DNA of 64,000 nucleotides from Alphaproteobacteria bacterium (GCA_030680745.1 JAUXUR010000077.1:4197-68196), one strand, 5' to 3'. Shown: positions 5,119 through 29,099, counted from the first letter of the stretch. The notes: generated by a model not told the origin, from the sequence alone. Made by a program: numbers and translations.

Positions 5119-5193
<75 letters not shown>

Positions 5194-5195
5194 AT

Positions 5196-6518
5196 TCAGT
5201 TTATCGTATGCCTTTTTTTAAAATCTACCTGATAACGATTACTTTTAGATTTTGGTTTTGGCTTTTTAATTTTTTTCTGAATTTTTAATACGTTCGGCAA
5301 TTTCTTATCTTTTTTACTTGGTTCTATAATCACTGGTATTTGAAGTGCGTTATCCATAGAAAATATGATAAAAGGCATAAAATAAGGTATGTTTTGTTTT
5401 TCTTTTATATTTGCAATTGTAGAAGTTGACATATCTTTTAAAAAGAGCTCAATATATATTCTTATTGCAGCACGTTCAGTTTCAGGATAGGCTAAAAAAT
5501 AATTTTTAAAAAAACTTTGCATTGCAATACTAGCGTTTGTGCATATGTTCGAAATAGTTGTTGCGCATATTTCGGTTTCGTTCATAGCATCAAAAAAAGA
5601 AATAAAAATTGAAAACAAATCACCCTCAACTGGATTGCTATCAGTTGTTTTCGATACGTAGCTGTCATTATCAATAGTTTCAACTTGGTTTTTTGTAAAA
5701 TCAAAATAAATATTCCCGCCATGCGCATCCCCATGGGTAATTGTTTTATAATAATCGGTTAGTTTTTTTTCGTAGCGCGTAATTGGATTGTTTTCAAATG
5801 TATCATCTTGCAATAAATCTTTACTAAGCAATGTTGATTGATCCATAAATGTAACATGCATATTTCCAAAAGCTTGACCTAATTTTTCGTAAGCTTTGAT
5901 AATATTATTAATAGATTCATTCTCGATAATATCATGAAATGGTTTTCCTTGGGCTGCATTTAAGATAATAAAATATCTATTTTTATCATTACTATCCATA
6001 TAATCAAATGAAAAAGGTAGTGCAAATAATGGTTTTGGAAAATCAGTTGGATTGTCTAAAAGCCATTGAATTTTATGATTTGACTGAACAATTCTTAAAT
6101 TATTGACCTCAATATCATAATCCTCTAAATTTTTAATAACATAGGTTAATTTCCATTCATTTGATGCTATTGGGTTTAAGCATTGCTGATTAATACTAAT
6201 AAGTGTAATTTTTAAATCACGTTCTGAATCAGATGGATTTCTTAATTGAACACAATTTGGATTTATCAAACGATCGCCCCTTTCATTTGGATCTAAATAT
6301 AAACTATTGTCTAAAAAATCAAAATATTCTTCACCATTTTCATCTTGTTCAATATTTTTTTTACTAAGCCAATCCGCAATAGATTCAATCTTAAGACCAT
6401 TTTCAGATATCTCATCATTGGTGACAAATATTTCTTCAAAAGCATATAAAACATTTGATGTAAAAAAAACGCCTATAAAATAGAGAACGCCTATAAAATT
6501 ATTCATAACAACCTCCAC
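5196..6518 (-). CDS. Secreted or membrane-anchored phosphotransferase-fold protein (APH/choline-kinase-like); horizontally acquired islet gene
   Basis: N-terminal hydrophobic segment. Brenner-type motif ITHGDAHGGNIYFD followed by TIDND. Lys-rich tail (KKIKKPKPKSK). The gene is visibly AT-richer than its flanks and lies between two identical tRNA-Gln genes. Confidence 0.5.
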   Translation of the reverse strand: MEVVMNNFIGVLYFIGVFFTSNVLYAFEEIFVTNDEISENGLKIESIADWLSKKNIEQDENGEEYFDFLDNSLYLDPNERGDRLINPNCVQLRNPSDSERDLKITLISINQQCLNPIASNEWKLTYVIKNLEDYDIEVNNLRIVQSNHKIQWLLDNPTDFPKPLFALPFSFDYMDSNDKNRYFIILNAAQGKPFHDIIENESINNIIKAYEKLGQAFGNMHVTFMDQSTLLSKDLLQDDTFENNPITRYEKKLTDYYKTITHGDAHGGNIYFDFTKNQVETIDNDSYVSKTTDSNPVEGDLFSIFISFFDAMNETEICATTISNICTNASIAMQSFFKNYFLAYPETERAAIRIYIELFLKDMSTSTIANIKEKQNIPYFMPFIIFSMDNALQIPVIIEPSKKDKKLPNVLKIQKKIKKPKPKSKSNRYQVDFKKRHTIN

Positions 6519-6701
6519 CTGTACATGTTCTATTATTTGTAAAAAAGATTAAAATAAAGTTAAAAAATATTTTATATTTCTACTTTAGTAAATTTATTTT
6601 ACAATTTATTTTGATCTTTATAAAAACAATCAATTAATAGCAGAAGCCTACAAAAGGGGTTGTGTAAGATGTAAAAAGGCTGTATCTTGTCATTATTCTT
6701 T

Positions 6702-6776
<75 letters not shown>

Positions 6777-6861
6777 ATTTTATTCATTAGCTCATTTCAC
6801 TTTTTTTTCTTAATTATATTTTTAAAAAACGCTACAAAATAATTCAATTTACATGACAAAG

Positions 6862-7200
6862 AATGAAATTAAGCCCATTTTTAACTATCCAGCTCTCACA
6901 CTCCGCAACTTATTTCTAAGAAGTGAAAACAATTTTTTACCAAAAGCCCTCTAAAAGAAGAGTTTTTTACCTCTCCCCTTGTGGGAGAGGTCGCGACCAA
7001 AGGGAGCGGGTGAGGGGTATTTTACAATTTTGGAGAGATGCGTATTTGTTTGGCAATGCTTAGATTATGGCGTGATGGCGTTGCTCTTTGTAAACGCTTT
7101 ATACACCCCTCACCCGTCGCTGCGCGTCGACCTCTCCCACAAGGGGAGAGGTAAAACCGAAGCAATTTCATTTTTTGTTTTGTAGATTGATTTTAATTAT
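6862..7200. repeat. Composite intergenic repeat family C, copy 1. It comprises the module aagcccatttttaactatcc...ccaaaagc plus a ~220-bp palindrome built on cctctccccttgtgggagaggtcgcg / cgcgtcgacctctcccacaaggggagagg.
   Basis: A second copy at 23183-23560 is >90% identical by eye. The arms are exact reverse complements. Confidence 0.75.
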
Positions 7201-8236
7201 AAATAATTTTTTGATCATTCCTATGAATAAAGCGTTGATTAGCAGCATCAAGCGCATCAATCAGTTCGCGGCCAATATTGCCACCCATTCCATTGATTTT
7301 TAAACGTAGGATCGCTTTAAATGAATTTATATGATCTTTAATAAGTCCTAAACAATCATCTGATAAATCGTGAATCGATGTTAAATCGTAAAGAGATTGC
7401 GCAACAATAGCGACAAGCGGGTAATCAAAAATCCCTCCTAAGCCTCGCAATTCATGTGAGGTTGAATTCAATCTTTCAAAAAAGGGCTTACGTTTAGATT
7501 CTTCTAAGTTTTCAGAGGATTTGCAATCACTTTCTAAAAGATGGATATACTTTAATACGACATCAAGAAAACCTTGCGTTTGTTTAGTAAGCTCTTTTCG
7601 AATCTCACGCATAATCTGTGGATCAACAATAGGGTATTCATCAGATGATTCATTTGAAGTTTTTTGATTTTTTTTTGGCATCACACTTAAGATGCGATAT
7701 TTTTTTACCTGTTCGGGTTTATCGAGTGGGCCGCGTCGATCGATTGTATAAGCTTCACGGGCTTTTTTACGTCTGTCTGGACCAAAAAAATTATCCGTTT
7801 TAACAAAAGTATTTTCATTCGTTAAAAGACGTTGTAAATGTCCCGTTACGGCGTCAACAGAAAAAGGCTTTGACAAAAATCCATTGCCACCAAGATCGCG
7901 TGCCCTGGTTATTTTTTCAACATCACAAATACCACTAATCATAATAAAAGGAATAAAGGGATTGGGTGATGCCTGATGTTGACGAACCCATCTTAAAAGT
8001 GAGATACCATCAACGGGCGACATTAACCAATCTGATATGATTAAATCTATGCCGCAACTACCAGGTTTGCTATGATCTTGAGGGTATGTTTTTAACACCT
8101 CAATAGCCTCTCCACCATCGCGTGCCTTCAATACATCCCCAATACCTAAACAACGCAAAATCGATGTAATAAGCCCCCTAACTTGATCACTATCTTCAAC
8201 AAGAAGTATCCTGATATCTTGAAAGCTTTTAATCAT
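7193..8236 (-). CDS. response regulator with N-terminal receiver domain and C-terminal Hpt (histidine phosphotransfer) domain
   Basis: REC motifs (LLVEDSD, ISDWLMSPVDG, SKP). C-terminal HELRGLGGIFDYPLV matches the Hpt H-x-L-K/R-G signature. Confidence 0.6.
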   Translation of the reverse strand: MIKSFQDIRILLVEDSDQVRGLITSILRCLGIGDVLKARDGGEAIEVLKTYPQDHSKPGSCGIDLIISDWLMSPVDGISLLRWVRQHQASPNPFIPFIMISGICDVEKITRARDLGGNGFLSKPFSVDAVTGHLQRLLTNENTFVKTDNFFGPDRRKKAREAYTIDRRGPLDKPEQVKKYRILSVMPKKNQKTSNESSDEYPIVDPQIMREIRKELTKQTQGFLDVVLKYIHLLESDCKSSENLEESKRKPFFERLNSTSHELRGLGGIFDYPLVAIVAQSLYDLTSIHDLSDDCLGLIKDHINSFKAILRLKINGMGGNIGRELIDALDAANQRFIHRNDQKIIYN

Positions 8237-8242
8237 TTTATA

Positions 8243-8665
8243 TTACCTTGCAATTGCGTTCGTCAGTCCAATGGCATTGGCAATTTGCTTTGAAATTGCT
8301 TCAAATGTAAATGGTTTAGTAATGTAACCTTGGATTGTTAAATTACCCATTTTACTTTCAAGTTGAGATGCATTGAAATCACTCACCATAATGACAGGTA
8401 GGTTTTTATTGGGACTATCTGATGAAGTACGCACCCATTTTGTAAGTTCTCCACCATCAATAGGTGTCATATACCAATCTGTTATCATCAAATGGATCGG
8501 GGAGTTTTGACGATATCTTGATTTAATTATATCGATCGCTTCTTTGCCGTTTTTGGCAAAAATGATTTTAGCTGATTTCATGCGTGACAAAAGTGCATTC
8601 ATTAAAAATTGTGTTGAGATATTATCTTCAACCACAAGTAGCGTTAAATCGTCTATCATCATCAT
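8243..8665 (-). CDS. single-domain response regulator (CheY-like receiver)
   Basis: LLVVEDN, MITDWYMTPIDG, TKP motifs. 140 aa. Lies 6 bp upstream of the REC-Hpt gene on the same strand. Confidence 0.7.
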   Translation of the reverse strand: MMMIDDLTLLVVEDNISTQFLMNALLSRMKSAKIIFAKNGKEAIDIIKSRYRQNSPIHLMITDWYMTPIDGGELTKWVRTSSDSPNKNLPVIMVSDFNASQLESKMGNLTIQGYITKPFTFEAISKQIANAIGLTNAIAR

Positions 8666-8807
8666 GAAACTTCTTATTTTTCTTGTTTATCTACCTAATT
8701 GTTCACTGTAATGAAGGATGGGTCAAGCAAAAACAAAAAGATTGCATATTTTTTAAAACTTCTTAAATTAGGTAAGCACAGGTTAAATACATTAGGATTT
8801 TAATAAA

Positions 8808-11800
8808 TTGCATTTACAGTATGGTTTTCAATTTCAAGATCTTTACACATTAGAAGGTTTGAAACGTTTAGACACATTATTTCTTGAAAAACTCAATAGC
8901 AAAAACCCTGAGCATAAAAAATTACTTATCGCTATGCGCGAACATCCTAAAAACTTTACAACCAAAGAACAATCTTCGTTTTTTTTAGAACTTGTGCCTT
9001 TTGTTGAAGATTTTATTGGATCGTTTTTTGATGTGCATCAAAATAGTATTCAATTAAAAGAGCATTATTTAAGTTATTTACCACTTATACGTGCCAAAAA
9101 AATATTTATACAAAGGCGTATTGGCAAAAATTATAATAACGAAAAAATTCAATCCATTGATGCAACGTCCTTAGAAAAAGACGTCATCGATATATTAGGA
9201 CCTGATTGGTCTGACTTAAAATTTGCAGTAAGAATATTAGATTTTTTAGAAGATGAAGAAAAATATGCAAAAGAGATCAAGCTGCTAAGTGACTATGCTG
9301 GATGGGCTATATATTCATTAGAAGGCATTCAAAAGCATAAAGAATCTTCTTTTTTTAAACTACCCGAAAAACTGGATTTTGAGCATTTAATTCATCATCT
9401 GCAACAAAAAAACAATCAATTACAATATGATGATTCGGCGTTAAGACAACGGAATGGCTTTTCGCTTACAGATCAAGGATGCTCAAAAGAACAATCTTTT
9501 GATCAAGCACATTATTGTATTTTTTGTCATCATCAAGGCAAGGATTCATGTTCTAAAGGCCTAAAATCTAAAACAACACAAGAATTTCAAGCCAATTCAC
9601 TTAGCATTTCGCTGACTGGGTGCCCTTTAGAAGAAAAAATTTCAGAAATGAATCAATCCGTTTCTGAAGGTTTTATTTTGGGCGCATTAGCCATTGCCAT
9701 GATTGATAATCCGCTTTTACCATTAACTGGTCACCGCATTTGCAATGAATGTATGAAGGCTTGTATTTACCAGAAACAAGAACCCGTTAATATTCCAGCC
9801 ATTGAAACAAAGATATTGCGCGATATTTTGTCTCTGCCCTGGGGCGTTGAAATATATTCTTTGCTTACGCGTTGGAATCCACTGAATTTTGAAAGACCGC
9901 TCCCCAAAGATTTGACGAATCATAAAATATTGGTAGCAGGGACGGGGCCCGCTGGTATTAATTTAAGTCATCATTTGCTGAATGAGGGTTTTGCTGTTTT
10001 TGCAATTGATGGGTTAAAAATTGAACCTTTATCCAATGTATTGGTTGGTGCCGGTTTTAAACCCATTCGTTATTTTAAAGAGATTCAAGAAAATTTAGAC
10101 GAACGTGTCATTGGCGGTTTTGGTGGTGTTGCTGAATATGGGATCACCATCAGATGGGACAAGAATTTTCTAAAATTAGTGCGTATCATTTTGGAGAGAC
10201 GTGATCATTTTCATCTAAAAGGGGGTATCCGTTTAGGCAGTAACATCACTATTGAGCAGGCCTTTTTATATGGTTTTGATCATATAGCGCTTGCTTTAGG
10301 TGCTGGTAAACCAAATCTTGTGCCCATTAAAAACAATCTTGCCAAAGGTGTTCGTATGGCTTCAGATTTTTTGATGGCTTTGCAATTAACAGGGGCATTT
10401 CAAAAAAGTAATCTTGCCAATCTGGAATTACGTTTGCCAGTTATTGTTATTGGTGGTGGATTAACAGCTATTGATACGGCAACAGAAGCGCTTGCTTATT
10501 ATCCGCGCCAAGTCGAAAAATTTTTGCATATTTATGAAACATTAAAACAAAAAAATATTGATGTTGATCAAAATTGGTCTTTTCAAGAAAAAGAAGACGC
10601 GCAAATTTGGCTTGATCATGCACGCGCCATTAAACATGAAAATGAAACAGCGATTCTTGAAGACCGTCAACCCAATATTATTAAATTACTTAGATCTTGG
10701 GGTGGCGTAAGTATTGCCTATCGTAAAACCTTACAAGAGTCCCCTTCTTATACGTTAAACCATGAAGAAGTTTCAAAAGCATTCGAAGAAGGTATTTATT
10801 TCATCGAAAATATCACCCCCATTGAAATTGAGCTTGATCAATATCAAGCGACAAAAGGTCTTAAAGTAAAACATCATGATGTTGATTTAATTTTACCTGC
10901 TAAAACAATTTTAATTGCAGCTGGAACTCAACCTAATATTACGTTAAAAGACGAAACCTCTTTTTTAAAAACAGATGGTAAATATTTTGAAGCACAAAAC
11001 CTTGCAGGCATAACAATAAATCCAGAAAAATCAAGTAAACCTAGCGAAATAGGCATTTTTACATATACGCATCATGATAATAGAAAAATATCCTATTTTG
11101 GTGATTTGCATCCTAGTTTTGCAGGCAATGTTGTTAAAGCTATGGCAAGCGCTAAACAAGGCTATCCTTATATTTCAAAACATTTAGAGATGCTTAAACC
11201 AAAAGACATACCTTTTCAGGAACTTTTTAATGACATAAATGAAAAACTCACCGCAATTATTACTGAGGTGAATCGTCTAACACCAAATATTGTTGAAATT
11301 GTTTTAAAAGCGCCGTTGGCTTGCGAAAATTTTAAGCCAGGACAATTTTATAGACTTCAAAATTTCGAAATGAGTGCTCGTAAAAATAGTGAAGCAAATT
11401 TCTCCATGGAAGGTATTGCCTTAACAGGGTCTTGGGTTGATGCATCAAAAGGGTTGCTGGGCTTAATCATTCTTGAAATGGGTGGATCATCGTCATTATG
11501 CACCTATCTTCAACCCAATGAAGAAGTCTTGTTGATGGGTCCAACCGGTACACCGACAGAATTACCCTCAGGTAAAAATGTATTATTAGTTGGTGGTGGC
11601 TTAGGTAATGCCGTTCTTTTTTCTATTGGTAAAGAACTGAAGCAAAAAGGATCAAAAGTTTTATATGTTGCGGGTTATAAAAAAATTGAAGATCGTTATA
11701 AAGTTCAAGAAATAGAAGATGCAGCTGATCATATTTTATGGTGCTGTGACGCGCAACCTGGATTTGAAATTGATCGTCCGCAAGATTTTACTTTTGTTGG

Positions 11801-14179: not shown

Positions 14180-15055
14180 ATGAAAAAAAGACTATATTTT
14201 ATAGCCTTGTTAACCATACTTTCATTAAATTTCGCGACATCACCATTGTTTGCGGTAACAACTATCTCTGGCGATGAAACACCAACTTTTACCTCCGTTG
14301 AAAATAGTCAAGAAGAAGCAGTTCATGGACCACAGCCAAACCCAGAAATAAATAATAATAACAACAATCAAATCGATGATGAAAATCAAGTTGATTTAAA
14401 TGGCGAAGATCAATTTACAGAAGAAGAAAAAAAAGCTTTTGTTGAGTTTAACAGTAAAACAGACAGGGATTTCATTTATGATCTTTTAGTTAGAGTATGT
14501 GCAATGAAATCGGTAGAAGGTAAAATTTATAGATATAAAGCAAAAAAAGGACAAGAATCTATTTTAAAATCACTTGGGAATTTAATTGAAAATGATATTC
14601 AAGTTAAATTAATATTTTCAAGTTCAAATATACTCGATAATGGTGTAGTAGAAACTACTTACAACATAATGGTAGGTGAAAACTTATTTGAAGATGTTCT
14701 ATTAATCGATGTTATGTATCATTATCCAACTTTTTCAACTAAGAAATGTGTTTTTAACTCTAAGATTGACGATTTATTAACCGCTTATGATAAAATTTAT
14801 AATAAAAATGGTGCTAACCATGGTAATTACCTCTATTTTTTACAGAATGATAAAGATAGAGATATGATTACATTGCTTAATAAAAATAAGGCGGATTTTA
14901 GATTCAACATCTGGACAAAATGTCCTTATGGTGCATATGAACATCACACATATGATCACAACTATTGCAATCCAGTTAATTATGTGACAGGACAACTTTA
15001 TGTTGATGAACAAAAACTAAGCCGTTTTACAAACGTTGTTGCAATGAAAAAATAA
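14180..15055 (+). CDS. Secreted protein of unknown function, with a poly-Asn tract and acidic low-complexity region
   Basis: Signal peptide (LFAVTT). NNNNNNQIDDENQ tract. Several Cys in the C-terminal half. No recognisable motif. Confidence 0.4.
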   Translation: MKKRLYFIALLTILSLNFATSPLFAVTTISGDETPTFTSVENSQEEAVHGPQPNPEINNNNNNQIDDENQVDLNGEDQFTEEEKKAFVEFNSKTDRDFIYDLLVRVCAMKSVEGKIYRYKAKKGQESILKSLGNLIENDIQVKLIFSSSNILDNGVVETTYNIMVGENLFEDVLLIDVMYHYPTFSTKKCVFNSKIDDLLTAYDKIYNKNGANHGNYLYFLQNDKDRDMITLLNKNKADFRFNIWTKCPYGAYEHHTYDHNYCNPVNYVTGQLYVDEQKLSRFTNVVAMKK

Positions 15056-16989: not shown

Positions 16990-17318
16990 GGAGGGCGTCA
17001 GATTTCGGAATTCAGCATGCTCATGTATAAAGAGATACACTCCGCGTGCTTCACCACTCATCTTCCTACCCATATTTTGAAATAATCGAGTATGATGCTC
17101 AGATTATGGACAAATCCGTCTTCAGAACTGCACTTCCAGTACTCATGTATGAAGAATACACTCCGTTCCGGTTCTCGTTCTTCCTAGACTTTGCCTCATA
17201 CTCTGAACATTTACACATAGCTGAGTATGATGCTCAGATTATGGGTAAATTCGTCGCGTCGTCAGAACTGCACTTCAGGTACTCATGTATGAAGAATACA
17301 CGCTGTTCCGCTTAATTC
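16990..17318. repeat. Tandem array (about 2.5 units) of repeat family B-related units (gagtatgatgctcagattatggNNaaatNcgtc...actcatgtatgaagaatacac)
   Basis: Direct repetition is visible at 17090-17200 and 17225-17318. The track ORF 17046-17315 lies inside and is probably not coding. Confidence 0.65.
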
Positions 17319-17319
17319 T

Positions 17320-18729
17320 TTAAAAACTAAAACCTACAACGCGACTTTGAAAGGCATTATCAAGTTGATCTAAAGGTGTTTTACCTGAGCATATGATGTT
17401 AAGTTTGCTCCAATCCACTTTAAAACCTAAATATTTGCAATCAAATTTTTTTGTTGTATTATCAAAAAGCTTTAAAAGCCAAAGAATGTTAGTTATATCT
17501 TTTACCCAATGATCAATATTTTTAATAATTAATAGGGAGTTTAAATGTTTTTGGGTTCCAGCTTGTAATGCTTCTAAAAACAATCCCTTTTTAATTTTAT
17601 AAGAACCATATAAGAACACGTCATCAGGCACAGCATTTTGAGCATCCACAATGTAGTAGGGCACACCAAACGCGCGCGCAATTAAAATGGATGATTCCTG
17701 AAAATCAGCATTACCTATGGAATCTAAATGACAATATGCTAAATATCGTGTTGATTCTGTAATGTTTTCATCGAGTGTCTCTTGTGCGTAATTTGCAAAA
17801 GACGTTAAAATTTCTTCGCAATCACTTTGGATATTATCTGATATATTTTTTTGGGTGAGTTCTGTTTTTAAATTGGTAATTATTGCTTCAAGTATTTCAA
17901 AATACTCATTATTTGTTTCTTGGGACAAAGTTTTTGTTTCAGTTGGGTGTGAAATCATAGAGTCAAGAAACTCTTTATCATGAAAAACATCTTGATTATA
18001 ATAAGACATAAAAGTTGATTCAATTTTATCTTGCCAATTTGCTAAAATTTTCGATTTGTTACTAACATACAAACATTCTAAATCGAAAATTTTGCCGGAA
18101 CTTGTTTGACGTTTAAGGGAGTTAATAAGATTAGATTGAGTAGATAATTGATGTTCAACTTCGCGTACAGGCGCAATCTGTTCCAACATCATGATTGCCT
18201 TTCTTGAAGGAATCATCAATTCACGCATTAATTTTTTGATACGCTTTTTACAATATGCGACACAATCATTATAAAGATGTTCTGCAATTCCAGGCTGAGC
18301 TATGACACTACTCATATATCTAATGAATTCGATAATAGAAGTTTCATAATATTTTTGAGATGAACCATTGGCAGGCGCATATGAAAAAGGGGCTGATGAG
18401 AGAATGCTAACTGAAATGATATAGGGTAACGCTTCCAATAAATAAGAAGATGGAAGAACAAAATATGTTGCTATGTTTCTTTTTTCATTCATTTCATCTA
18501 ATAGTTTTTGCAATGTTTCAATTTCTATTGTTTTGAAATTGATTATTTTTTCATCTAATAGTTTTTGTTTTTTAGCTTTCAGTAATGCTATTTTTGCTGT
18601 GCTTGTTGCAGAAAAGGACAGCTCAGATTGATCGTAAATATCACGCGTAAATATATTTTCTAGTCCCTTCATTGCGTAAGATTTTGTGCAAAAAAATAAG
18701 GATAAAAACAGTACATTTAAAAATTTCAT
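17320..18729 (-). CDS. Secreted paralog of the adjacent AAA+ protein, with a degenerate P-loop (pseudo-ATPase)
   Basis: Signal peptide from the ATG at 18729. Conserved post-signal motif ENIFTRDIYD (the neighbour has ENLFTHDLYR). Its C-terminal half aligns with the neighbour (YYIVDAQN vs YYLDIANE; KNIDHW vs IDDVDR), but Walker A is replaced by SSILIARAFG. Confidence 0.45.
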   Translation of the reverse strand: MKFLNVLFLSLFFCTKSYAMKGLENIFTRDIYDQSELSFSATSTAKIALLKAKKQKLLDEKIINFKTIEIETLQKLLDEMNEKRNIATYFVLPSSYLLEALPYIISVSILSSAPFSYAPANGSSQKYYETSIIEFIRYMSSVIAQPGIAEHLYNDCVAYCKKRIKKLMRELMIPSRKAIMMLEQIAPVREVEHQLSTQSNLINSLKRQTSSGKIFDLECLYVSNKSKILANWQDKIESTFMSYYNQDVFHDKEFLDSMISHPTETKTLSQETNNEYFEILEAIITNLKTELTQKNISDNIQSDCEEILTSFANYAQETLDENITESTRYLAYCHLDSIGNADFQESSILIARAFGVPYYIVDAQNAVPDDVFLYGSYKIKKGLFLEALQAGTQKHLNSLLIIKNIDHWVKDITNILWLLKLFDNTTKKFDCKYLGFKVDWSKLNIICSGKTPLDQLDNAFQSRVVGFSF

Positions 18730-18795
18730 TTGTATGGCCTCAATATAAGTAAAAGACACTCTCAAGTGCCTTTTATAATCTTAATTTTTGTTTAA

Positions 18796-20562
18796 CTAAT
18801 CCGCTTGGATTTCAGCTTCAACAATTATATCGGTCTTTGCCCATTTTTTCTTTGTGGCTGTTTCTTTCCATTTATCTTGAGGTTGTTGCAATAAAGCGTC
18901 AATACGCTGTCCTACTGTACGATTATCGTCTACGTCATAATAATCGATGATAAAATCAGCCATTGTATTACGGATAATAAGCCATTCATTTTGTTTGTTG
19001 TAAAAGATTCTAGACATTTTAAGTTTTCTATCACTCAAATAATCACGTATGTGTTTTTTCTTAGATTCAATATCTGCTGGAAGAAATTTGATTAATTCAA
19101 ACCTACTATTCAAAGCTTCAAATTGTTCTTTATCGAGACCAACACTAAAATCTGTATTTGTCGTGCAAATAAGATGAACTTGACTCATATCAAACTTTTT
19201 AATGCCATAATACCCAGCGTCAAAATACAATGTTTCTTTATCCGAATTTTTAAGCAAACATTTCATTAACCCTTTCATATCAAGAACTTTCCCAGTTGCA
19301 GCATCTTTTGTAAAAGCGCGATCTACATCATCAATAATAATAATGATATTTTTTGATCTTTTGCCGTCAGCATTTTGAGCTAGAAAAGCCTTAGGGAAAT
19401 GCCCTTTATTACTTGATAGAATTGAGCTGCTTCCATAAAGAGAAGATGTTTTGAAATCATCTTCATTAGCAATATCCAAATAATAAGTCGGTAAATTAAG
19501 GGCTTGAGCAATTAATTTTGCTGCAACCGACTTACCAGCACCCGGTTTGCCAAAAAATAAATAAGCTTTACGTTTGTCGCCATTTTCTTCAGCAATAGCA
19601 TTTTGAGAGCAGTCACAAATATCACGAACCATTTGCTCTAAAGATTCTTTTACATCTTCCTTATAGAAACATAATTTTTGATCATTTCCATGAATGGTTT
19701 CTTCTGCAAATATTTCTTTTATAAAATCGTTAGTTTCCTCAACAAGTTCATCACCCTCTTTATAATTAGGCGGCAAAGAAATTGTTTCTGTTGGAAAATT
19801 AAGTAAGTCTTGTAAGGCTTCCAAAGGATCATTATTCCCTAAACCACCTGGCGCTTTGCGGCAAGCGATAAGTTTATTTTCTATGACTTCTTTCCAATCA
19901 TCATTATATATTGATTGGCTTTCTACATATAAAGCTTCAAGATCTTTAATGTTTTCATTTTCGATTTTATTCAGCAACGTCGCAATAAGTGCTTTTGCCT
20001 CGATCCTTTTTTGATGAGAACCATCTTCCGCAAAAACAGTAAGCCCCACTTCTAAAGCAACATGGGCAGCCATGACGCCACCCGCTACTTTGTAATTGAA
20101 TATTTTTTCACCGTCAGTATTTCGACCACCAGAACAATAAGCGCTTACAAAAGTTGTTCCGGTAGTACGTAGAGCTTTGATACCAAGATCTTTCCAACTT
20201 ATTGTTGATAATTCATTAACATATGTTAAAATCGGTATTATTTTAGCTTCAATTAATTTATTTATTTTACGTTGTTGAAGTTTTTGGAGTGTTGGGTCTG
20301 TTGTGGGTTGCACATTTACTTGTGCATTTATGCGCATTTGTGCAAAAGTTTCACCAAATAATTTTTCAAACAATGCCCGATTTTTTAGATCCAATGGATC
20401 CGTATCATAGTGATTAGCAACGTCTAACCGATAGAGGTCATGCGTGAACAAATTTTCAAATGGATATGCCGTATTAACATCGCTTATGGGGTCCGCATAT
20501 GAAGACGCAGGATAAAAAGATGTGGATATGAAAAAGCATATGAAAAATTTAAAAAATTTCAT
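18796..20562 (-). CDS. AAA+ ATPase with N-terminal signal peptide or anchor
   Basis: Walker A GKPGAGKS, Walker B IIIIIDDVD, sensor-1 ICTTN. N-terminus MKFFKFFICFFISTSFYPASSYA. Confidence 0.55.
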   Translation of the reverse strand: MKFFKFFICFFISTSFYPASSYADPISDVNTAYPFENLFTHDLYRLDVANHYDTDPLDLKNRALFEKLFGETFAQMRINAQVNVQPTTDPTLQKLQQRKINKLIEAKIIPILTYVNELSTISWKDLGIKALRTTGTTFVSAYCSGGRNTDGEKIFNYKVAGGVMAAHVALEVGLTVFAEDGSHQKRIEAKALIATLLNKIENENIKDLEALYVESQSIYNDDWKEVIENKLIACRKAPGGLGNNDPLEALQDLLNFPTETISLPPNYKEGDELVEETNDFIKEIFAEETIHGNDQKLCFYKEDVKESLEQMVRDICDCSQNAIAEENGDKRKAYLFFGKPGAGKSVAAKLIAQALNLPTYYLDIANEDDFKTSSLYGSSSILSSNKGHFPKAFLAQNADGKRSKNIIIIIDDVDRAFTKDAATGKVLDMKGLMKCLLKNSDKETLYFDAGYYGIKKFDMSQVHLICTTNTDFSVGLDKEQFEALNSRFELIKFLPADIESKKKHIRDYLSDRKLKMSRIFYNKQNEWLIIRNTMADFIIDYYDVDDNRTVGQRIDALLQQPQDKWKETATKKKWAKTDIIVEAEIQAD

Positions 20563-20592: not shown

Positions 20593-20886
20593 TTAGTTTA
20601 TAAATTCTTTCTCAACACAAAGTTTTAAGAATGGTCGTATAGCGTCTATTTCTTTTTCAGCTTGTTTTTCTTCGCTTGATGTCCATATTGAACTTTTTCG
20701 AAATTCTTCTATACGGAGAGTGTTTGAAACTAATAGATGTAATGCCAAATCACAATTATGTTGATTTACAGCCATACGACCATTAGTATCATATTCTGTT
20801 TTTGTTTTACCTGCATATATTGCAGATGAAAGACTAAACAATGCTATACTTAGAAAGATCGTTCTCTTCATTTTAATATTCCTCAA
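20593..20886 (-). CDS. small secreted protein, unknown function
   Basis: Signal peptide (LSSAIYA). 2 Cys. Confidence 0.35.
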   Translation of the reverse strand: MRNIKMKRTIFLSIALFSLSSAIYAGKTKTEYDTNGRMAVNQHNCDLALHLLVSNTLRIEEFRKSSIWTSSEEKQAEKEIDAIRPFLKLCVEKEFIN

Positions 20887-21116
20887 TAATTAGGTCAACA
20901 ATAGAAATGATTTTCTATCTGATTTAAATGACATGGTCAATGTTTTTTTGTAGATTTTAAAAAATATTATTGTATGTTTTTCAAACGGTTGTGTTTTTGC
21001 CTTGTTCAATTTTTTTTTTGTATTGTTGAATAACAAATATTAAAAAATTATTATTGACATATTTTTTTAAACCTTTATTAACATGCTCAACCATATGAAA
21101 TAAAAGGATTTACCAA

Positions 21117-23571: not shown

Positions 23572-24555
23572 TTAAGGTTCACGCCAAAAATGACACGCAA
23601 CAATATGTGTTGGGCTTATGTGCTCAAGCAAGGGTGTTACTTCAGCACAAACAGCCTGTGCTTTAGGACAACGTGTTCTAAAACGACAGCCTGATGGGGG
23701 ATTAAGTGGGGAGGGGAGATCACCTTTAATAATCATACGTTGCTTTTTTTGCTCAAGATCCGGATCTGGAATGGGCACCGCTGAAATCAAAGCTTGTGTA
23801 TAAGGATGTCTAGGGTTTTTGTATAGATCTTCATTTTCAGCAATTTCAGCAACACGGCCCAAATATAAAACAGCTATTTTATGGCTGATATGCCGCACAA
23901 CGCCTAAATCATGAGAGATGAAAATTAACGAAATATTGGTCTCTTTTTGAAGATCCATTAGTAAGTTTAAGATTTGTGCTTGAATAGAGACGTCTAAAGC
24001 ACTCACAGGTTCATCACAGACCAAAAGTTTAGGTTGTAAAATCATGGAACGCGCAATACCAATACGTTGGCATTGACCGCCTGAAAATTCATGAGGATAA
24101 CGATTGATTTGATGCGGGCTTAAACCCACTTTTAACATTATTTCTTCAACGCGTTCGCTACGTTCAGCTTTTGATAGATTTGGAAAAAATGTTTTTAAAG
24201 GTTCTGTAATAATTTGTCCGACAGTCATACGTGGATTGAGCGATGCCAAAGGATCTTGAAAAATAATCTGAAGATCTTTGCGCAAATTACGCATCTCATT
24301 TTTTTCAAGGTTGGCAAGGTTCTTGCCCATCCATAAAACTTGACCATCCGTAGGTTTAATAAGATTTAAGATGGCACGTCCTAAAGTTGATTTGCCACAA
24401 CCAGATTCACCTACAATACCAATCGTTTCGCCTTCATTAAGATCTAGACTTATACCATCAACAGCTTTAACTGTGTCAGCGTTATTTTTTGACCAAAAGA
24501 ATTTTTTTCGAACGTTAAAATAAACTTTGAGATCAGTAACTTTTAATATTGGCAT
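23572..24555 (-). CDS. oppF: oligopeptide ABC transporter ATP-binding protein
   Basis: Walker A GESGCGKST, LSGGQ-type FSGGQCQR, Walker B LLVCDEP. C-terminal oligopeptide-type extension. Confidence 0.85.
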   Translation of the reverse strand: MPILKVTDLKVYFNVRKKFFWSKNNADTVKAVDGISLDLNEGETIGIVGESGCGKSTLGRAILNLIKPTDGQVLWMGKNLANLEKNEMRNLRKDLQIIFQDPLASLNPRMTVGQIITEPLKTFFPNLSKAERSERVEEIMLKVGLSPHQINRYPHEFSGGQCQRIGIARSMILQPKLLVCDEPVSALDVSIQAQILNLLMDLQKETNISLIFISHDLGVVRHISHKIAVLYLGRVAEIAENEDLYKNPRHPYTQALISAVPIPDPDLEQKKQRMIIKGDLPSPLNPPSGCRFRTRCPKAQAVCAEVTPLLEHISPTHIVACHFWREP

Positions 24556-24559
24556 GGGT

Positions 24560-25603
24560 TTAAATCTCAGTTAAATGACACGCTTTAGCGCGTGTGTCAG
24601 AAATCGGTAATAATTCTGGTCGTATCTCTTTACAGATAGGCATCTTATAAGGACAACGTGGCTCAAAAGAACAACCATGTGGCAATTTCATCAGATTTGG
24701 CGGACGACCAGGGATTGTTTCCAGTTTATCTGTGCGACCTTCGTCAATACGTGGCATCGCTTTTAATAGGCATTTCGTATAAGGATGCTGCGGTGTATAA
24801 AAAATATCGCGAACAGGTCCCGATTCAACAATGCGACCAGCATACATGACAAGAACGCGATCACATAATCCTGCAACAACGCCTAAATCATGGGTGATCA
24901 TAATAATCGATGTATTAAGTTCAGTACGTAAGTTTTTAATAAGGTCGATAACTTGCGCTTGAACAGTTACATCTAAAGCAGTTGTGGGTTCGTCAGCAAT
25001 TAAAAGTTCTGGGGAACATAACAATGCCATGGCAATCATAACACGTTGACGCATACCACCAGAAAATTCATGTGGGTACATATGGAAACGACGTTCTGCT
25101 TCAGGAATGCGTACATGATCAAGCATTTCAAGCGCCGTATCAGTCGCTTCTTTATTGCTCATTGTTTTATGGGCGTGCAAGACTTCTGTTAATTGCTTCC
25201 CGATGGTCATATAAGGATTCAATGAAGTCATGGGATCCTGGAAGATCATCGAAATATGAGAGCCACGAATATCATTTAACTGATCGACAGGCATGCCCAA
25301 AATTTCTTTATCAAAGAATTTGACGCTTCCTTTGGCTTTACCATTATTGGCGAGTAGGCCCATAATGCTCATAAAAACTTGGCTTTTACCAGAACCTGAT
25401 TCGCCTACGATACCAATACATTCACCCTTTTGAATTTGAAAATTAATATCATTAGCGGCCTTAACAATGCCTTCACGTATTTTAAATTGTACGTTAAGTC
25501 CTTGCACTGTAAGAAGTGCATTGGCATCACGACTGGCTTTGCCAACTGTTGACGGTTTTTTTCTATCGATCTTTTGGGTCGAGCGCATCGCGGATACCAT
25601 CAC
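24560..25603 (-). CDS. oppD: oligopeptide ABC transporter ATP-binding protein
   Basis: GESGSGKS, FSGGMRQR, LLIADEPTTALD. Confidence 0.85.
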   Translation of the reverse strand: MMVSAMRSTQKIDRKKPSTVGKASRDANALLTVQGLNVQFKIREGIVKAANDINFQIQKGECIGIVGESGSGKSQVFMSIMGLLANNGKAKGSVKFFDKEILGMPVDQLNDIRGSHISMIFQDPMTSLNPYMTIGKQLTEVLHAHKTMSNKEATDTALEMLDHVRIPEAERRFHMYPHEFSGGMRQRVMIAMALLCSPELLIADEPTTALDVTVQAQVIDLIKNLRTELNTSIIMITHDLGVVAGLCDRVLVMYAGRIVESGPVRDIFYTPQHPYTKCLLKAMPRIDEGRTDKLETIPGRPPNLMKLPHGCSFEPRCPYKMPICKEIRPELLPISDTRAKACHLTEI

Positions 25604-26489
25604 CTATAAAATTTAATGAAAATAAAGAAAAGGCAAGAAAAATAGCTGGGAAGATCAAACGCCACCAAGCTGTTTCAATTTCGGGCGATCCCTCACTAAT
25701 AAGAACGCCCCAACTTGCCATGGGTTCTTGAACACCAAGACCTAAAAAGCTTAAAAAAGATTCAATCATAATAACACGCGGTATTGTAAGCGTTATGTAA
25801 ACAGCAACAGGGCCAAGTGTATTAGGAATGATGTGACGTTTTAAAATATTATAGGTTGAAACACCTTGAGCATGTGCTGCTTCCACGAATTCTTTCTTTT
25901 TGATACTGAGTGTTTGACCGCGAACAATACGAGCCATATCTAGCCATTCGACAGCACCAAGGGCTATAAAAATCAAAAAGATATTACGTCCAAAAAAGAC
26001 CATTAAGATAATAACGAAAAACATGAAGGGCAGTGAATACAAGACGTCGACAAAGCGCATCATGAAAGAATCAGTTTTTCCACCTAAAAATCCAGCCGTC
26101 GCCCCATAAGTGACACCAATGACAAGACTTACAAGTGTTGCCACAAATCCAACCATGATTGAAATACGGCCACCATAAAGGGTTCTGATGAATAGATCGC
26201 GTCCATTTCCATCTGTGCCAAAATAATGGTGATTTTCAAAACTTGGGTCAGTGCTGATATTATCCCAATCAACTTCATCAAAAGTAAAAGGGAAAAGATC
26301 AGGACTTATCATTTGTAAATAAGGTGCTATCACCGAAAGTAGAATGATAAAACCCAGGATGGACATGCCGACAACGGCCATCTTATTGCGCATAAGACGA
26401 TGTCCAGCATCAGCCCAAAGACTTCTACCTTTAATGATAACGTCGAAATCTCTTTTCGTATTTAATGTTTTACTATTTGGCATGATCAA
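25563..26489 (-). CDS. oppC: oligopeptide ABC transporter permease
   Basis: BPD-transport permease signature region. Position in the operon. Confidence 0.85.
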   Translation of the reverse strand: MIMPNSKTLNTKRDFDVIIKGRSLWADAGHRLMRNKMAVVGMSILGFIILLSVIAPYLQMISPDLFPFTFDEVDWDNISTDPSFENHHYFGTDGNGRDLFIRTLYGGRISIMVGFVATLVSLVIGVTYGATAGFLGGKTDSFMMRFVDVLYSLPFMFFVIILMVFFGRNIFLIFIALGAVEWLDMARIVRGQTLSIKKKEFVEAAHAQGVSTYNILKRHIIPNTLGPVAVYITLTIPRVIMIESFLSFLGLGVQEPMASWGVLISEGSPEIETAWWRLIFPAIFLAFSLFSLNFIGDGIRDALDPKDR

Positions 26490-27409
26490 TCATAACGTAC
26501 GCGTGGATCCAGAAGACCATAAAGAAGGTCAACGAATAGATTAAAAAGAATAATAATGATGCCAAAGAAGACAACAACACCCATAACAAGCGTGTAATCT
26601 CGATTAATGGCACCTGTCACAAAATGAGATCCAATACCAGGAATTTGGAAAATCTTTTCAATAACAACAGAGCCCGTAATAATGTTGGCCGTTGCTGGTC
26701 CCAGATATGAAATGACTGGCAATAAGGCTGCACGCAATGCATGACGCGTCACAATTAATCGTTCAGGTAGGCCTTTGGCGCGCGCTGTTCGAATAAAGTT
26801 ACTCCGCAAAACTTCAATCATACTGCCGCGTGTTAAACGTGCAATATAGGCGATTTGAGGAAGTGCTAGTGATATAATAGGTAATATAACATGGCTAAAG
26901 TCGCCATCACCCCAGCCCGAGACAGGCAGTAACTTAAAATAGACCCCCAAGACCAGACTTAAAAGGGGGGCGACGACAAAGTTGGGAATGGTGATCCCGA
27001 CCATCGCTGTGCCCATAACCGTGTAATCAATCCATGTATTTTGTTTTAAAGCGGCAAGCGATCCAAAGAAAATACCAAAAAGCATGGCAAGTCCAATAGC
27101 TGAAAGGCCTAGTTTAAGGGAAACAGGGAAACCCATCCAAATGAGATCATTGACGCTCCAATCCTTATATTTGAAGGAGGGGCCAAAATCACCTTGGAGG
27201 ACATTGAATAAATAACGCTTAAACTGCATATAGAGAGGCTCATCAAGATGATAAGCCTTCATAAGATTTTCGCGTATTTCAGGCTGAAGTGGTTGTTCCG
27301 TGTCAAAAGGTCCACCTGGTGTCAAGCGCATCATAAAAAATGCTATGACGATGATCGCAAGAAGCGTGGGGATTGACCCTAAAATTCGTTTTAAAGAATA
27401 AATTAACAT
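26486..27409 (-). CDS. oppB: oligopeptide ABC transporter permease
   Basis: EAA-like loop (ARAKGLPERLIVTRHALR). 4-bp overlap with oppC. Confidence 0.85.
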   Translation of the reverse strand: MLIYSLKRILGSIPTLLAIIVIAFFMMRLTPGGPFDTEQPLQPEIRENLMKAYHLDEPLYMQFKRYLFNVLQGDFGPSFKYKDWSVNDLIWMGFPVSLKLGLSAIGLAMLFGIFFGSLAALKQNTWIDYTVMGTAMVGITIPNFVVAPLLSLVLGVYFKLLPVSGWGDGDFSHVILPIISLALPQIAYIARLTRGSMIEVLRSNFIRTARAKGLPERLIVTRHALRAALLPVISYLGPATANIITGSVVIEKIFQIPGIGSHFVTGAINRDYTLVMGVVVFFGIIIILFNLFVDLLYGLLDPRVRYD

Positions 27410-27461
27410 TGGGTCACTTCACCCTATCTCCATAACTATAAATAAAAGACGAAATTAAAAC

Positions 27462-29099
27462 CTATCTTATGATTTCTAAGTCCTTTGAGTAAAAAATGTC
27501 AAGAACATTGTTCTCTGTTACTTTATATCCACCAACATTAGGTTTAACTAAACGCGACCTAACCGTGTGATATAACGGAATAAGTGCATGATGGTTTAAA
27601 AGATGGATTTCAGCTTCACCTAAAAGAGTTGCACGTTCATCCAAATTATTAGTCATCGATGCCTTTTTTACAAGATTATCATAATCAGGAGAACTATACC
27701 CTAAATCATTCATTGGTGCATTAGAAATCATCGTTTCTGAAAAAGAATATGGATCATTGTAATCGCCAACCCAACCAGATCTACAGATTTCAAAGTTTTT
27801 CTTCTCGTAGCGTTCTTGTAAATATATCTTCATTTCCATATTATGAAACGCTATCTGAATACCAGGTAAATGTTGTTTCCACATATCAACGACTGCAATG
27901 GCGATTTTTTTATGATTTTCATTTGTGTTATATGAAAATGTTAGTTTAAGAGGGTTTTTTTCTGAATATCCCGCTTCTTTGTATAAAGTTTTAGCACGTT
28001 CAATACGCTCATTCATTGGCATGTCTTTAAATGGAACGCATTGTGGTTTTGCATTTGCTGTATTTGGTGGTACTAATCCATAAGCGGGTATTTCGCCTGC
28101 TGCAATTATTTTTTCAGCCAATATTTCACGATCAATAACAAGAGAAAGAGCTTCGCGAACATCTTTGTTTTTGCCTAAAGGCTCTTTGGCTAGATTAATG
28201 CCATAGTAAAAAGTTGAAAGATATGGGTGCGTTCTTAAATCTTTGCTAAGAATTGGATCATCCTTAACTTGTTTGAAACGATCAGAGGGAACCGCAAACG
28301 TTAAATCTAATTCGCCTGCTCTATATTTTTTCAAGGATGCATTTGTATCTTCCATTGGAAAATATTGAACCTTATCAAGCTTTACATGTTCTTGATCCCA
28401 ATAATAAGGATTCTTCGACAGCATAATAAATTCATTGACGCGTCTTTCAGAAAGAACGAAAGCGCCGTTTGACACGAGATTGCCAGGTTTAACAAAGTCC
28501 TGGTCGCCTAATTTTTCATAGGATGCTTTATGAAAAGGGAAGAATGAATGGTGTAAAAGGCCATTTAAGAAATAAGGTGTTGTAGATTTTAGGTTCACTT
28601 CAAGTGTGTAATCATCAATTGCTTTAACGCCTAATTGTGAAAAATCTTTGATTTCGCCTTTGTTAATTTGTTCTGCATTTAAAATAGGGTAATGCGTAAA
28701 GGCATAATTAGAGGCGGTTTTTGGATCAAGAATATGCTGCCAAGCAAAAACAAAATCATGTGCCGTAACCGGATCGCCATTGGACCATTTAGCATTTTTA
28801 CGTAAATGGAAACGGTATAATTTTCCGTCGTTTTCAATATCCCATTTTTCGGCAGTCGCTGGGATGAGCTTGCCATCTTGATTGCAGATCACAAGACCTT
28901 CATAAATATCCCGTGTAATAAAATAAGAGGGGAAACCTATAGCTTTGGCAACGTGAAGAGAATCTGGTTCTGAATCCAAATCACGTTTTAAAATTTGTTC
29001 ATTTTTTTGTGGTGTCTTAACATCGGCGTTTACCTGAAAAACGCTTAAGGCTGTAAGAGCTGTTAAAATTGCAAATGATTTCTTCACATTTTTCTCCAA
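27462..29099 (-). CDS. oppA: oligopeptide-binding periplasmic protein (SBP family 5)
   Basis: Signal peptide. 545 aa. Family-5 SBP length and composition. First gene of the opp operon. Confidence 0.8.
   Translation of the reverse strand: MEKNVKKSFAILTALTALSVFQVNADVKTPQKNEQILKRDLDSEPDSLHVAKAIGFPSYFITRDIYEGLVICNQDGKLIPATAEKWDIENDGKLYRFHLRKNAKWSNGDPVTAHDFVFAWQHILDPKTASNYAFTHYPILNAEQINKGEIKDFSQLGVKAIDDYTLEVNLKSTTPYFLNGLLHHSFFPFHKASYEKLGDQDFVKPGNLVSNGAFVLSERRVNEFIMLSKNPYYWDQEHVKLDKVQYFPMEDTNASLKKYRAGELDLTFAVPSDRFKQVKDDPILSKDLRTHPYLSTFYYGINLAKEPLGKNKDVREALSLVIDREILAEKIIAAGEIPAYGLVPPNTANAKPQCVPFKDMPMNERIERAKTLYKEAGYSEKNPLKLTFSYNTNENHKKIAIAVVDMWKQHLPGIQIAFHNMEMKIYLQERYEKKNFEICRSGWVGDYNDPYSFSETMISNAPMNDLGYSSPDYDNLVKKASMTNNLDERATLLGEAEIHLLNHHALIPLYHTVRSRLVKPNVGGYKVTENNVLDIFYSKDLEIIR

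Follow-up and report, generated by a model that had tools for sequence, protein, structure and literature searches.

Gene organization at the A-B locus

A 64,000-nucleotide stretch of an alphaproteobacterial genome (GCA_030680745.1, JAUXUR010000077.1:4197-68196; hereafter, the window) carries two adjacent minus-strand genes, here called A and B, that together span positions 17320-20562 in the open reading frame (ORF) listing. A encodes a Lon-type AAA+ ATPase, and B a paralog that keeps the arginine (Arg) finger but has lost the other motifs of the nucleotide site. The coordinates of the genes and of the features within them are given in Table 1. The locus is an operon, in which a gene for a small signal-peptide protein is followed by A and then by B. 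The initial annotation of this DNA, made from the sequence alone, had described a two-gene module, which is too narrow: the small gene lies 30 nt upstream of A, and its paralogs flank the pair here and elsewhere.

The operon likely starts at the promoter-like site listed in Table 1, which is the best of the region by consensus only, the total count of such sites region-wide being not above that of shuffled controls. The small ORF is preceded by a GAGG ribosome-binding site (RBS). The spacer between A and B is 66 nt long and contains, besides the GAGG RBS of B, a hairpin that may set the A:B ratio by partial termination or as a site of processing. B was first listed as a 481 aa ORF starting from TTG 18765 (17320-18765), but all B orthologs begin MKF(I/L)NV and the RBS precedes the ATG at 18729 (M13 of that ORF), which is therefore the actual start.

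Table 1. Features of the A-B locus, in window coordinates. Signal peptides are predicted.
Feature	Position	Strand	Remarks
Promoter-like site	20870..20898	-	TTGACC, 17 nt spacer, TAAAAT; 10/12 consensus match; 5' of small ORF
Small exported-type protein, 92 aa	20593..20871	-	ATG 20871; signal peptide MKRTIFLSIALFSLSSAIYA; first gene of module
Gene A	18796..20562	-	588 aa; Lon-type AAA+ ATPase, no protease domain, signal-peptide-like N-terminus
A, predicted Sec signal peptide	20494..20562	-	residues 1-23, MKFFKFFICFFISTSFYPASSYA; mature start DP; heuristic n/h/c analysis
A, N-terminal family motif	20404..20457	-	residues 36-53, ENLFTHDLYRLDVANHYD; family consensus FxxxIYDQ
A, helical hairpin (low confidence)	20029..20196	-	residues 123-178; weakly hydrophobic Gly/Ala-rich block VAGGVMAAHVALEVGLTVFA (159-178)
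A, Walker A	19528..19551	-	GKPGAGKS, aa 338-345; motif mapping, alignment
A, pore-loop-1 region	19402..19434	-	GSSSILSSNKG, aa 377-387; aligned to Lon GHRRTYVGAMPG
A, Walker B	19327..19347	-	IIIIIDD, aa 406-412 (D411-D412); DD where Lon has DE
A, sensor-1	19156..19164	-	TTN, aa 467-469 (N469); motif mapping
A, Arg finger	19102..19104	-	R487; aligned to Arg of Lon LxDRME
A, sensor-2	18919..18921	-	R548, in C-terminal lid aa 494-588; alignment to Lon
Intercistronic hairpin	18750..18775	-	11-bp stem, between A and B; 3 G-C pairs only, poor T-tail
Gene B	17320..18729	-	469 aa pseudo-ATPase paralog; signal peptide aa 1-19; motif ENIFTRDIYDQ aa 24-34
B, retained Arg finger	17341..17343	-	R463 (in AFQSRV); alignment with orthologs, motif mapping
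Small 2-Cys protein, 106 aa	21117..21437	+	paralog of the operon's first gene; divergent transcription; predicted export
Small 2-Cys protein, 104 aa	21438..21752	+	M6 likely start; further paralog; predicted export

Protein A is a complete Lon-type AAA+ motor, consisting of a 3-helix bundle, an alpha/beta core with the Lon-specific insertion, and a lid. It matches PF00004 (E 3.9e-10, 40.7 bits against a cut-off of 21.2) and no more specific Pfam family, which places it within the AAA+ superfamily. The positions of its motifs were set by alignment to Lon, using the motif assignments of the literature. The AlphaFold2 (AF2) model of A from an 89-sequence alignment has a mean predicted local distance difference test score (pLDDT) of 90.6 and a predicted template modelling score (pTM) of 0.83; from 8 sequences, the pLDDT was just 42. 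The ratio of nonsynonymous to synonymous substitution (dN/dS, NG86 method) is 0.20-0.33.

All of the motifs quoted in the initial annotation are present (in A, GKPGAGKS, IIIIIDD, TTN and ENLFTHDLYR, the last at aa 36-45, with Y44 nearly invariant family-wide; in B, ENIFTRDIYD at aa 24-33, and SSILIARAFG). That the two genes are adjacent paralogs on the same strand is also borne out. A and B align by BLASTP with an E value of 4e-13 and 27% identity over about 300 aa (A183-470 with B205-463), and when orthologs are added in a multiple alignment, the homology reaches from the N-terminal post-signal motif as far as the Arg finger. They had been called full-length paralogs, however, and B is not full length: it stops 6 residues past the Arg finger and is without the C-terminal lid of about 100 aa found in A, including sensor-2. 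The reported loss of the P-loop in B is correct (HLDSIGNADFQE at this position, then SSILIARAFG) but understated, since Walker B has become LLIIKN, sensor-1 CSGK, and the pore loop is about 4 residues short, while the Arg finger is kept. B has no Pfam match, and no Pfam or NCBIfam model covers any part of it. Its dN/dS of 0.21-0.32, much like that of A, indicates purifying selection, so B is not a pseudogene; the ORF is intact in 4 genomes, and conservation of the B type extends to proteins of about 20% identity. B thus appears to be a maintained, specialised subunit.

A Lon-type family and the recurrence of the pair

Relatives were sought by comparing a profile of the A and B orthologs with 1.84 billion representatives (clusters at 50% identity). 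The 338 matches at E <= 1e-3 (126 at E <= 1e-10) indicate a discrete family, not the AAA+ superfamily at large, and the A and B types belong to one undescribed family of at least 338 clusters. In the literature, no description of such a family or of an exported bacterial AAA+ protein was found, and neither the A-type nor the B-type profile retrieved a PDB entry for a family member. The NCBI annotations of relatives, which come from metagenome-assembled genomes (MAGs), read "AAA family ATPase" or "hypothetical protein". Word-index protein searches returned 4 close orthologs each for A and for B, and the same type of search with a 150-sequence profile returned the close clade and Lon proteases only. 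A profile scan of genome contigs matched one MAG, and the A-type alignment retrieved one Lon gene and one generic AAA gene, and no more, from metagenome contigs. No family member was found on plasmids by tblastn, where a Lon gene was the sole match. Within the window, a search of all ORFs with the family hidden Markov model (HMM) matched A and B only, so there is no third member.

When 135 representatives were aligned (hmmalign), 113 were found to have the Walker A lysine and 22 to lack it. The 22 also lack Walker B (where K or N mostly occur), sensor-1 and the whole lid with sensor-2, and have a median pore loop of 8 residues, compared with 12 in the Walker-A-positive members. The Arg finger is nevertheless kept in 20 of them, and in 131 of the 135 overall. 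This pattern would be the signature of a partner that gives its Arg in trans to the ATP site of a neighbour, and because B-types keep the Arg finger while losing all other nucleotide-site motifs, a heteromeric A-B machine, as the initial annotation had proposed, is the best reading. An example of such donation is F1-ATPase, in which the alpha subunit gives an Arg to the ATP site of beta. In the Walker-A-positive members, Walker B is mostly [D/N]D, with DE in only 24 of the 113, which hints at slow or regulated hydrolysis.

The initial annotation recognised no characterised family, but the ATPase module is clearly Lon-type and of the HCLR clade, although its members are not Lon proteases. In searches of the PDB, a profile of 57 Walker-A-positive members matched LONP1 (E 4.5e-31) and Bacillus subtilis Lon (2e-28) ahead of ClpA (3e-11) and p97 (about 1e-9), and its alignment takes in the lid and the Lon-specific segment LLxxLDPxxNxxFxDxYxxxxxDLSxVxFIxTxN. 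A profile of 19 Walker-A-less members gave 28 matches, every one of them Lon (best E 4e-5), aligned from the Walker B segment through the Arg finger. With A alone, phmmer retrieved RFC1 and Lon only (E about 3e-3). Foldseek comparison of the AF2 model of A with the PDB gave LONP1 (E 3e-11) and 4ypn, a LonA fragment of 3-helix bundle and AAA domain (template modelling score by target, TMt, 0.69). Features shared with LonA (LONP1 and the B. subtilis and Meiothermus enzymes) are the 3-helix bundle before the AAA+ core, the Lon-specific segment, the pore-loop spacing G-x10-G, the sensor-1 Asn, an Arg finger in LxxR and the sensor-2 Arg in the lid. Unlike LonA, the A/B family has neither the protease domain nor the N-terminal PUA-like domain, most members have DD or ND in place of the DE of Walker B, and there is a signal peptide, the FxxxIYDQ motif, a hydrophobic hairpin and a pair of active and inactive paralogs.

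Three other identities were considered and rejected. Neither A nor B is a LonA protease: there is no match to Lon_C (PF05362) in either, A ending with its lid at aa 588 and B at its Arg finger, and the NCBIfam lon model scores 15.7 bits against a cut-off of 608. The N-terminal substrate-binding domain of Lon (PF02190) has no match either, and the N-terminal 330 aa of A are without a Pfam or NCBIfam match. A cytoplasmic IstB-like family with B as a pseudogene, the outcome that would have overturned the initial annotation, is not what was found: A has no IstB match, which also speaks against a transposon helper, its best match is Lon, and B is under selection. Other matches of A were weak and partial, to IetA/IteA and DnaX only. 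As for an anti-phage defence ATPase, PADLOC gave partial matches of A only, to IetA (E 7e-8, aa 289-378) and DolB, and none for B or for a third paralog, C, found in a related locus; no defence-system partner genes are nearby.

The order A then B, with a further B-type gene (B') sometimes added, is seen in 8 independent loci: the window and those designated L001, L002, L004, L007, L009, L010 and L014. The window has the small ORF, A and B, and L002 has A and B. L001 adds a third dead paralog (C) and has six small paralogs nearby, while L004 continues into the start of a third family gene. In L007, a 96-aa signal-peptide ORF precedes A (629 aa) and B (402 aa). L009 has A (657 aa) and B (447 aa), with SBP_bac_5 genes on both sides of the pair (75-1715 and 6324-9826). 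L010, an alphaproteobacterium judging from a nearby MipZ gene, has three small 2-Cys ORFs, A (615 aa), B (405 aa), B' (434 aa) and a small ORF; L014 has A (540 aa), B (407 aa), B' (371 aa) and two small Cys-rich signal-peptide ORFs. Equal-sized contigs suggest that relatives P0009 and P0018 are a further pair. Compared with the window proteins, the A proteins of these loci are 30-40% identical and the B proteins about 20-27%. Each B-type gene with readable context lies directly downstream of an A-type gene. The arrangement and its accessory small proteins recur in diverged alphaproteobacterial MAGs, and the pairing of a pseudo-ATPase with an active paralog, first noted in this DNA, is a conserved module in which B is under purifying selection.

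The three small proteins of the window are mutual paralogs; all have a signal peptide, and their mature part is helical, with two conserved Cys spaced about 45-50 residues apart. Orthologs of the 92-aa protein (45-50% identity) immediately precede A in L001 and L002, and its dN/dS is 0.28-0.50. The family of such proteins (about 80-120 aa, with signal peptide, helical mature part and Cys pairs) has no Pfam or NCBIfam match. It is of growing copy number and always adjoins an A-B pair, with copies in L001 (six, 5822-7971), L010 (3811-4788 and 9356-9607) and L014 (12397-12977).

Solitary family members also occur (L006, L008 and L011). That of L006 has no signal peptide and adjoins a 928-aa patatin-domain gene and a GerE-TPR gene, while that of L011 has Ank and BNR domains and adjoins a GerE-NB-ARC-TPR gene. 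The neighbours at L006 6324-9869 and L011 4543-7857 are STAND-type regulators of about 1100 aa with GerE (a LuxR-type helix-turn-helix), NB-ARC or DUF7779, and TPR domains; that two unrelated solitary members each lie beside one suggests a recurrent regulatory pairing. In L008, a 321-aa ORF (8006-8971) directly upstream of a frameshifted A-type gene has a signal peptide followed by FDSEVYNQ, the family N-motif, but no AAA+ domain and no match to the family HMM, so the motif may be a portable module. Some members, including ones with signal peptides, carry C-terminal Ank, Sel1, BNR or LRR domains. A sub-clade without signal peptide or hydrophobic hairpin (P0060, P0062, P0067, P0073, P0093, P0096, P0098, P0112, P0117, P0128 and L006 10001-12544) keeps a Lon-like RTY pore loop and has Ser/Thr-rich N-termini (e.g., MSSQVSATAAVSYKGVFDQSIYDQ), which look like candidate type III secretion signals.

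Predicted export and topology, and a proposed mode of action

Signal peptides and topology were judged by heuristics, using Hessa-type and Wimley-White scales among others. Features of a type I signal peptide (n, h and c regions) are seen in A, in B and in the small proteins; the internal block is a borderline case. The N-termini of A and B have a basic n-region, an h-region of 10-15 residues and SYA just ahead of the predicted cleavage site. In the L003 ortholog of A, the sequence differs but its character is the same (MNVWKVISFIGILLISLSLSA, then DP), and by the heuristic used, signal-peptide-like N-termini with short h-regions are found in 97-109 of the 135 representatives. By these heuristics, the signal peptides of the initial annotation are upheld. 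Export of the AAA+ domain itself is favoured, but hinges on whether or not the weakly hydrophobic internal block is a stop-transfer anchor.

In A, the block includes His and Glu, and has an apparent free energy of insertion (dG) of about +4.9 kcal/mol on the Hessa-type scale and about +1.0 on the Wimley-White scale; the uncharged block of B (aa 86-120) has a Hessa-type dG of about +6.4. Both are predicted to be poor stop-transfer segments. The block is weak in B orthologs (Kyte-Doolittle (KD) hydropathy 1.04-1.28) and in P0017 (0.77), no segment is detected in 16-36 of 97 signal-peptide members, depending on threshold, and several distant members have two hydrophobic helices. Where blocks are strongest (47 signal-peptide members), the flank before the block is more basic than the one after it (K+R 3.1 vs 2.4; Wilcoxon p 0.02 for K+R and 0.005 for net charge), whereas an anchor oriented N-out/C-in would show the reverse under the positive-inside rule. 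In the 15 members that have no signal peptide, the hydrophobic block is also absent and linkers are about 35 residues shorter, with the N-motif still attached to the ATPase. In the AF2 model of A, residues 121-180 (pLDDT 61-75) lie between confident helices 90-120 and 181-201, a pattern that points to a protruding hairpin whose two ends lie on the same side. For residues 31-58, a mostly coil stretch that directly follows the signal peptide, the pLDDT is 94-98; judged by these values alone, this stretch would be docked on the body of the protein. Also in favour of export are the signal peptides and conserved Cys pairs of proteins encoded beside the pair, and the C-terminal Ank, Sel1, BNR or LRR domains of some signal-peptide members. 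The hydrophobic region does not match the Gly-zipper families of Pfam, and members with and without a signal peptide do not differ in Cys depletion. On balance, we rate the ATPase domains as slightly more likely than not to be exported, and an FtsH-like topology as distinctly less probable. Within the Lon/HCLR branch of AAA+ proteins, the pair has a new architecture, characterised by its active and dead members and a probable extracytoplasmic location.

In the reading we prefer, with a probability of about 0.45, the pair works as a heteromeric, Lon-like machine that is exported by Sec and to which B contributes an Arg finger. Sec would carry both proteins across the inner membrane, the N-terminal FxxxIYDQ segment would pack back against the protein body, and the Gly/Ala-rich helical hairpin would hold the complex against the extracytoplasmic face of a membrane. 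The two proteins would assemble as a mixed ring or an alternating dimer-of-subunits, with ATP binding and hydrolysis confined to A, whose pore loop would engage the substrate, while R463 of B would complete and stimulate the ATP site of A. ATP would have to come from outside, either through porins into the periplasm of a bacterium living in a eukaryotic cell or from the host after release of the proteins. The co-encoded small disulfide-type proteins would be the likeliest clients or adaptors. A bolder version, and one we regard as doubtful, is that of a new class of extracytoplasmic ATP machine: a Sec-exported, hairpin-tethered, protease-less, Lon-derived ring with an Arg-donating dead paralog, using host ATP in intracellular bacteria. 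In that case, other secretion routes would deliver to the host those members of other lineages that have no signal peptide or that are fused to Ank, Sel1 or LRR domains.

A number of observations weigh against an exported machine. The bacterial periplasm is normally without ATP, and AAA+ motors in bacteria are regarded as cytoplasmic for this reason. An intracellular lifestyle is not indicated by the 64-kb window, with its ordinary biosynthetic and regulatory genes. Mature A has 7 Cys, and such an odd count is uncommon among proteins that reside in the periplasm. As A keeps its own Arg finger, it could also act as a homo-oligomer without B. Finally, the block of A has a 19-residue KD value (KD19) of 1.68 (1.58-1.82 in four orthologs), compared with the classical threshold of 1.6, the Wimley-White scale favours insertion for B (-6.2) and for 75 of the 97 signal-peptide members, clear single transmembrane (TM) helices occur in relatives P0015 (KD 2.39), P0107 (2.11) and P0019 (2.04), and most members score one segment, not two.

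These hydrophobicity values favour the main rival, an FtsH-like or type-I inner-membrane topology in which the block spans once and the AAA+ domains of A and B are cytoplasmic. The N-terminal stretch would be cleaved or form TM1, and the N-segment of about 100 aa with the FxxxIYDQ motif would lie in the periplasm, where it would bind the small proteins and so couple envelope events to a cytoplasmic A-B unfoldase. Such a layout has precedent in FtsH, poses no problem of ATP supply, and accounts just as well for the co-occurrence of signal peptide and block, which would be a two-element topology signal. We nevertheless consider it unlikely, since the ATPase of the many signal-peptide members with a weak or absent block would then be flipped to the outside, and segments numbering 0, 1 or 2, if true spans, would flip the catalytic domain from one member to another. 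It also runs counter to the flank charges, to the predicted hairpin between confident helices and very confident post-signal coil, and to the members without signal peptides, which hold the N-motif and ATPase in one compartment; C-terminal Ank, Sel1 and BNR fusions would be odd for the bacterial cytoplasm.

Two further explanations dispense with a complex. A and B could be effectors secreted separately into a eukaryotic host, A as a homo-hexameric unfoldase and B, which would need no nucleotide, as a decoy, a scaffold or a subunit that poisons Lon/Clp-type machines of the host. The Arg finger of A would allow homomeric active sites, the solitary members are many, exported HSP101 and Torsin are among the structural neighbours, and eukaryote-like domains (Ank, Sel1, LRR, BNR, zf-MYND, Copine and patatin) are fused to relatives or encoded nearby, though as an indication of an intracellular lifestyle or host link they are only suggestive. 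This we judge improbable, because all B-type genes with readable context directly follow an A-type gene, the selective retention of the Arg finger is the mark expected of a trans-acting partner, and no host association has been shown for the source organism. The simplest explanation, that the N-termini are not signals, that A is an ordinary cytoplasmic AAA+ protein and B a degenerating duplicate, draws on the almost invariably cytoplasmic location of AAA+ proteins, on the many Cys of mature A and on export having been judged by heuristics alone. Given the dN/dS of B, its intact ORF and the deep conservation of B-types, together with signal-peptide character that is held across most representatives despite sequence turnover and the signal peptides and Cys pairs of the adjoining small proteins, it is very improbable.

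Among characterised systems, Lon is clearly a closer match than Torsin, but the latter offers a functional parallel. Torsin is an ATPase with a signal sequence and a hydrophobic membrane-association segment that works outside the cytosol, as predicted here for A, and its cofactors LAP1 and LULL1 have an AAA+-like fold without nucleotide-binding motifs and supply a conserved Arg to the Torsin ATPase site (PMC4358337). B likewise keeps an Arg and is without nucleotide motifs, and its sequence suggests a similar donation. Torsin has no Arg finger of its own whereas A keeps R487, so the resemblance is one of function and not of membership; LAP1 and LULL1 are type-II membrane proteins, while B shares its N-terminal architecture with A, its close paralog, and Torsin is eukaryotic (endoplasmic reticulum and nuclear envelope) whereas the A-B pair is bacterial. 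HSP101 of the Plasmodium PTEX translocon differs in being a two-ring, ClpB-type protein of a eukaryotic parasite, in docking to the EXP2 pore and in lacking a pseudo-ATPase paralog. FtsH resembles the main rival's topology in its membrane-tethered AAA+ ring and short extracytoplasmic segment between two hydrophobic elements, but it is of the classic AAA clade with an M41 protease domain, while A and B are Lon-type and protease-less. Some FtsH paralogs of phytoplasmas are predicted to expose their catalytic part to the host, and lie in operons with oligopeptide-binding proteins (PMC6981957). The SBP_bac_5 genes that flank the pair in L009 are an echo of this, the phytoplasma topologies themselves being predictions only. 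Heteromeric AAA+ assemblies with catalytically dead subunits are also represented by the Ycf2-FtsHi motor of chloroplasts, the clamp-loader delta' subunit and the D1 domains of Pex1/Pex6, which unlike A and B are of other AAA+ clades, cytoplasmic or stromal, and without signal peptides.

If the ATPase domains are exported, a large Lon-type family, most of whose members have export signals, challenges the rule that such motors are confined to the cytoplasm, and an extracytoplasmic machine of this kind would be a bacterial counterpart of Torsin/LAP1 and PTEX HSP101; if they are not, the family would be a new FtsH-like class of membrane-tethered Lon relatives. In either case, A and B provide a clean natural example, in tractable two-gene form, of an ATPase and a dead paralog that keeps the Arg finger only. 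Human Torsin is regulated by the same design, and its disruption leads to dystonia. The Ank, Sel1, BNR and LRR fusions point toward host interaction, and defining the family would allow better annotation of many symbiont and pathogen MAGs.

Other features of the window

The remainder of the window (G+C about 32-39%) is ordinary chromosome, with genes for dapF, an Opp/Dpp-type ATP-binding cassette (ABC) operon, FtsY, MiaB, TauE, Alph_Pro_TM, response regulators and glycosyltransferases. Oligopeptide-type ABC transporter genes (SBP_bac_5, permeases and ATPases) are found near the module in the window (23572-29099, minus strand) and in L001. Between B and the Alph_Pro_TM gene is a tandem duplication of a unit of about 100 nt (17074-17173 and 17209-17313, plus strand; 81-89% identity), which has no Rfam match and no further copy within the window, and which gives rise to a spurious 89-aa ORF (17046-17315) with an internal EYDAQIM repeat.

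There are also several large orphan ORFs with signal-peptide-like N-termini and no Pfam match, at 45926-48535 (869 aa) and 57985-61875 (1296 aa), both on the minus strand, 5196-6518 (minus strand, 440 aa) and 14180-15055 (plus strand, 291 aa, with a poly-Asn tract). The 440-aa ORF is bracketed by two tRNA-Gln(TTG) genes with equal Rfam scores (5119-5193 and 6702-6776, plus strand), an arrangement that may reflect duplication or insertion at a tRNA. Two tandem paralogs for major facilitator superfamily transporters, each of 402 aa (41212-42420 and 42704-43912, plus strand), lie in a region with strong positive GC skew. At 63316-63813 (plus strand) is a gene for a predicted lipoprotein with an LSAC lipobox and a glycine-zipper stretch (GIGGIAGGIGGGVLG), which resembles outer-membrane lipoproteins of the 17-kDa-antigen/SlyB type.

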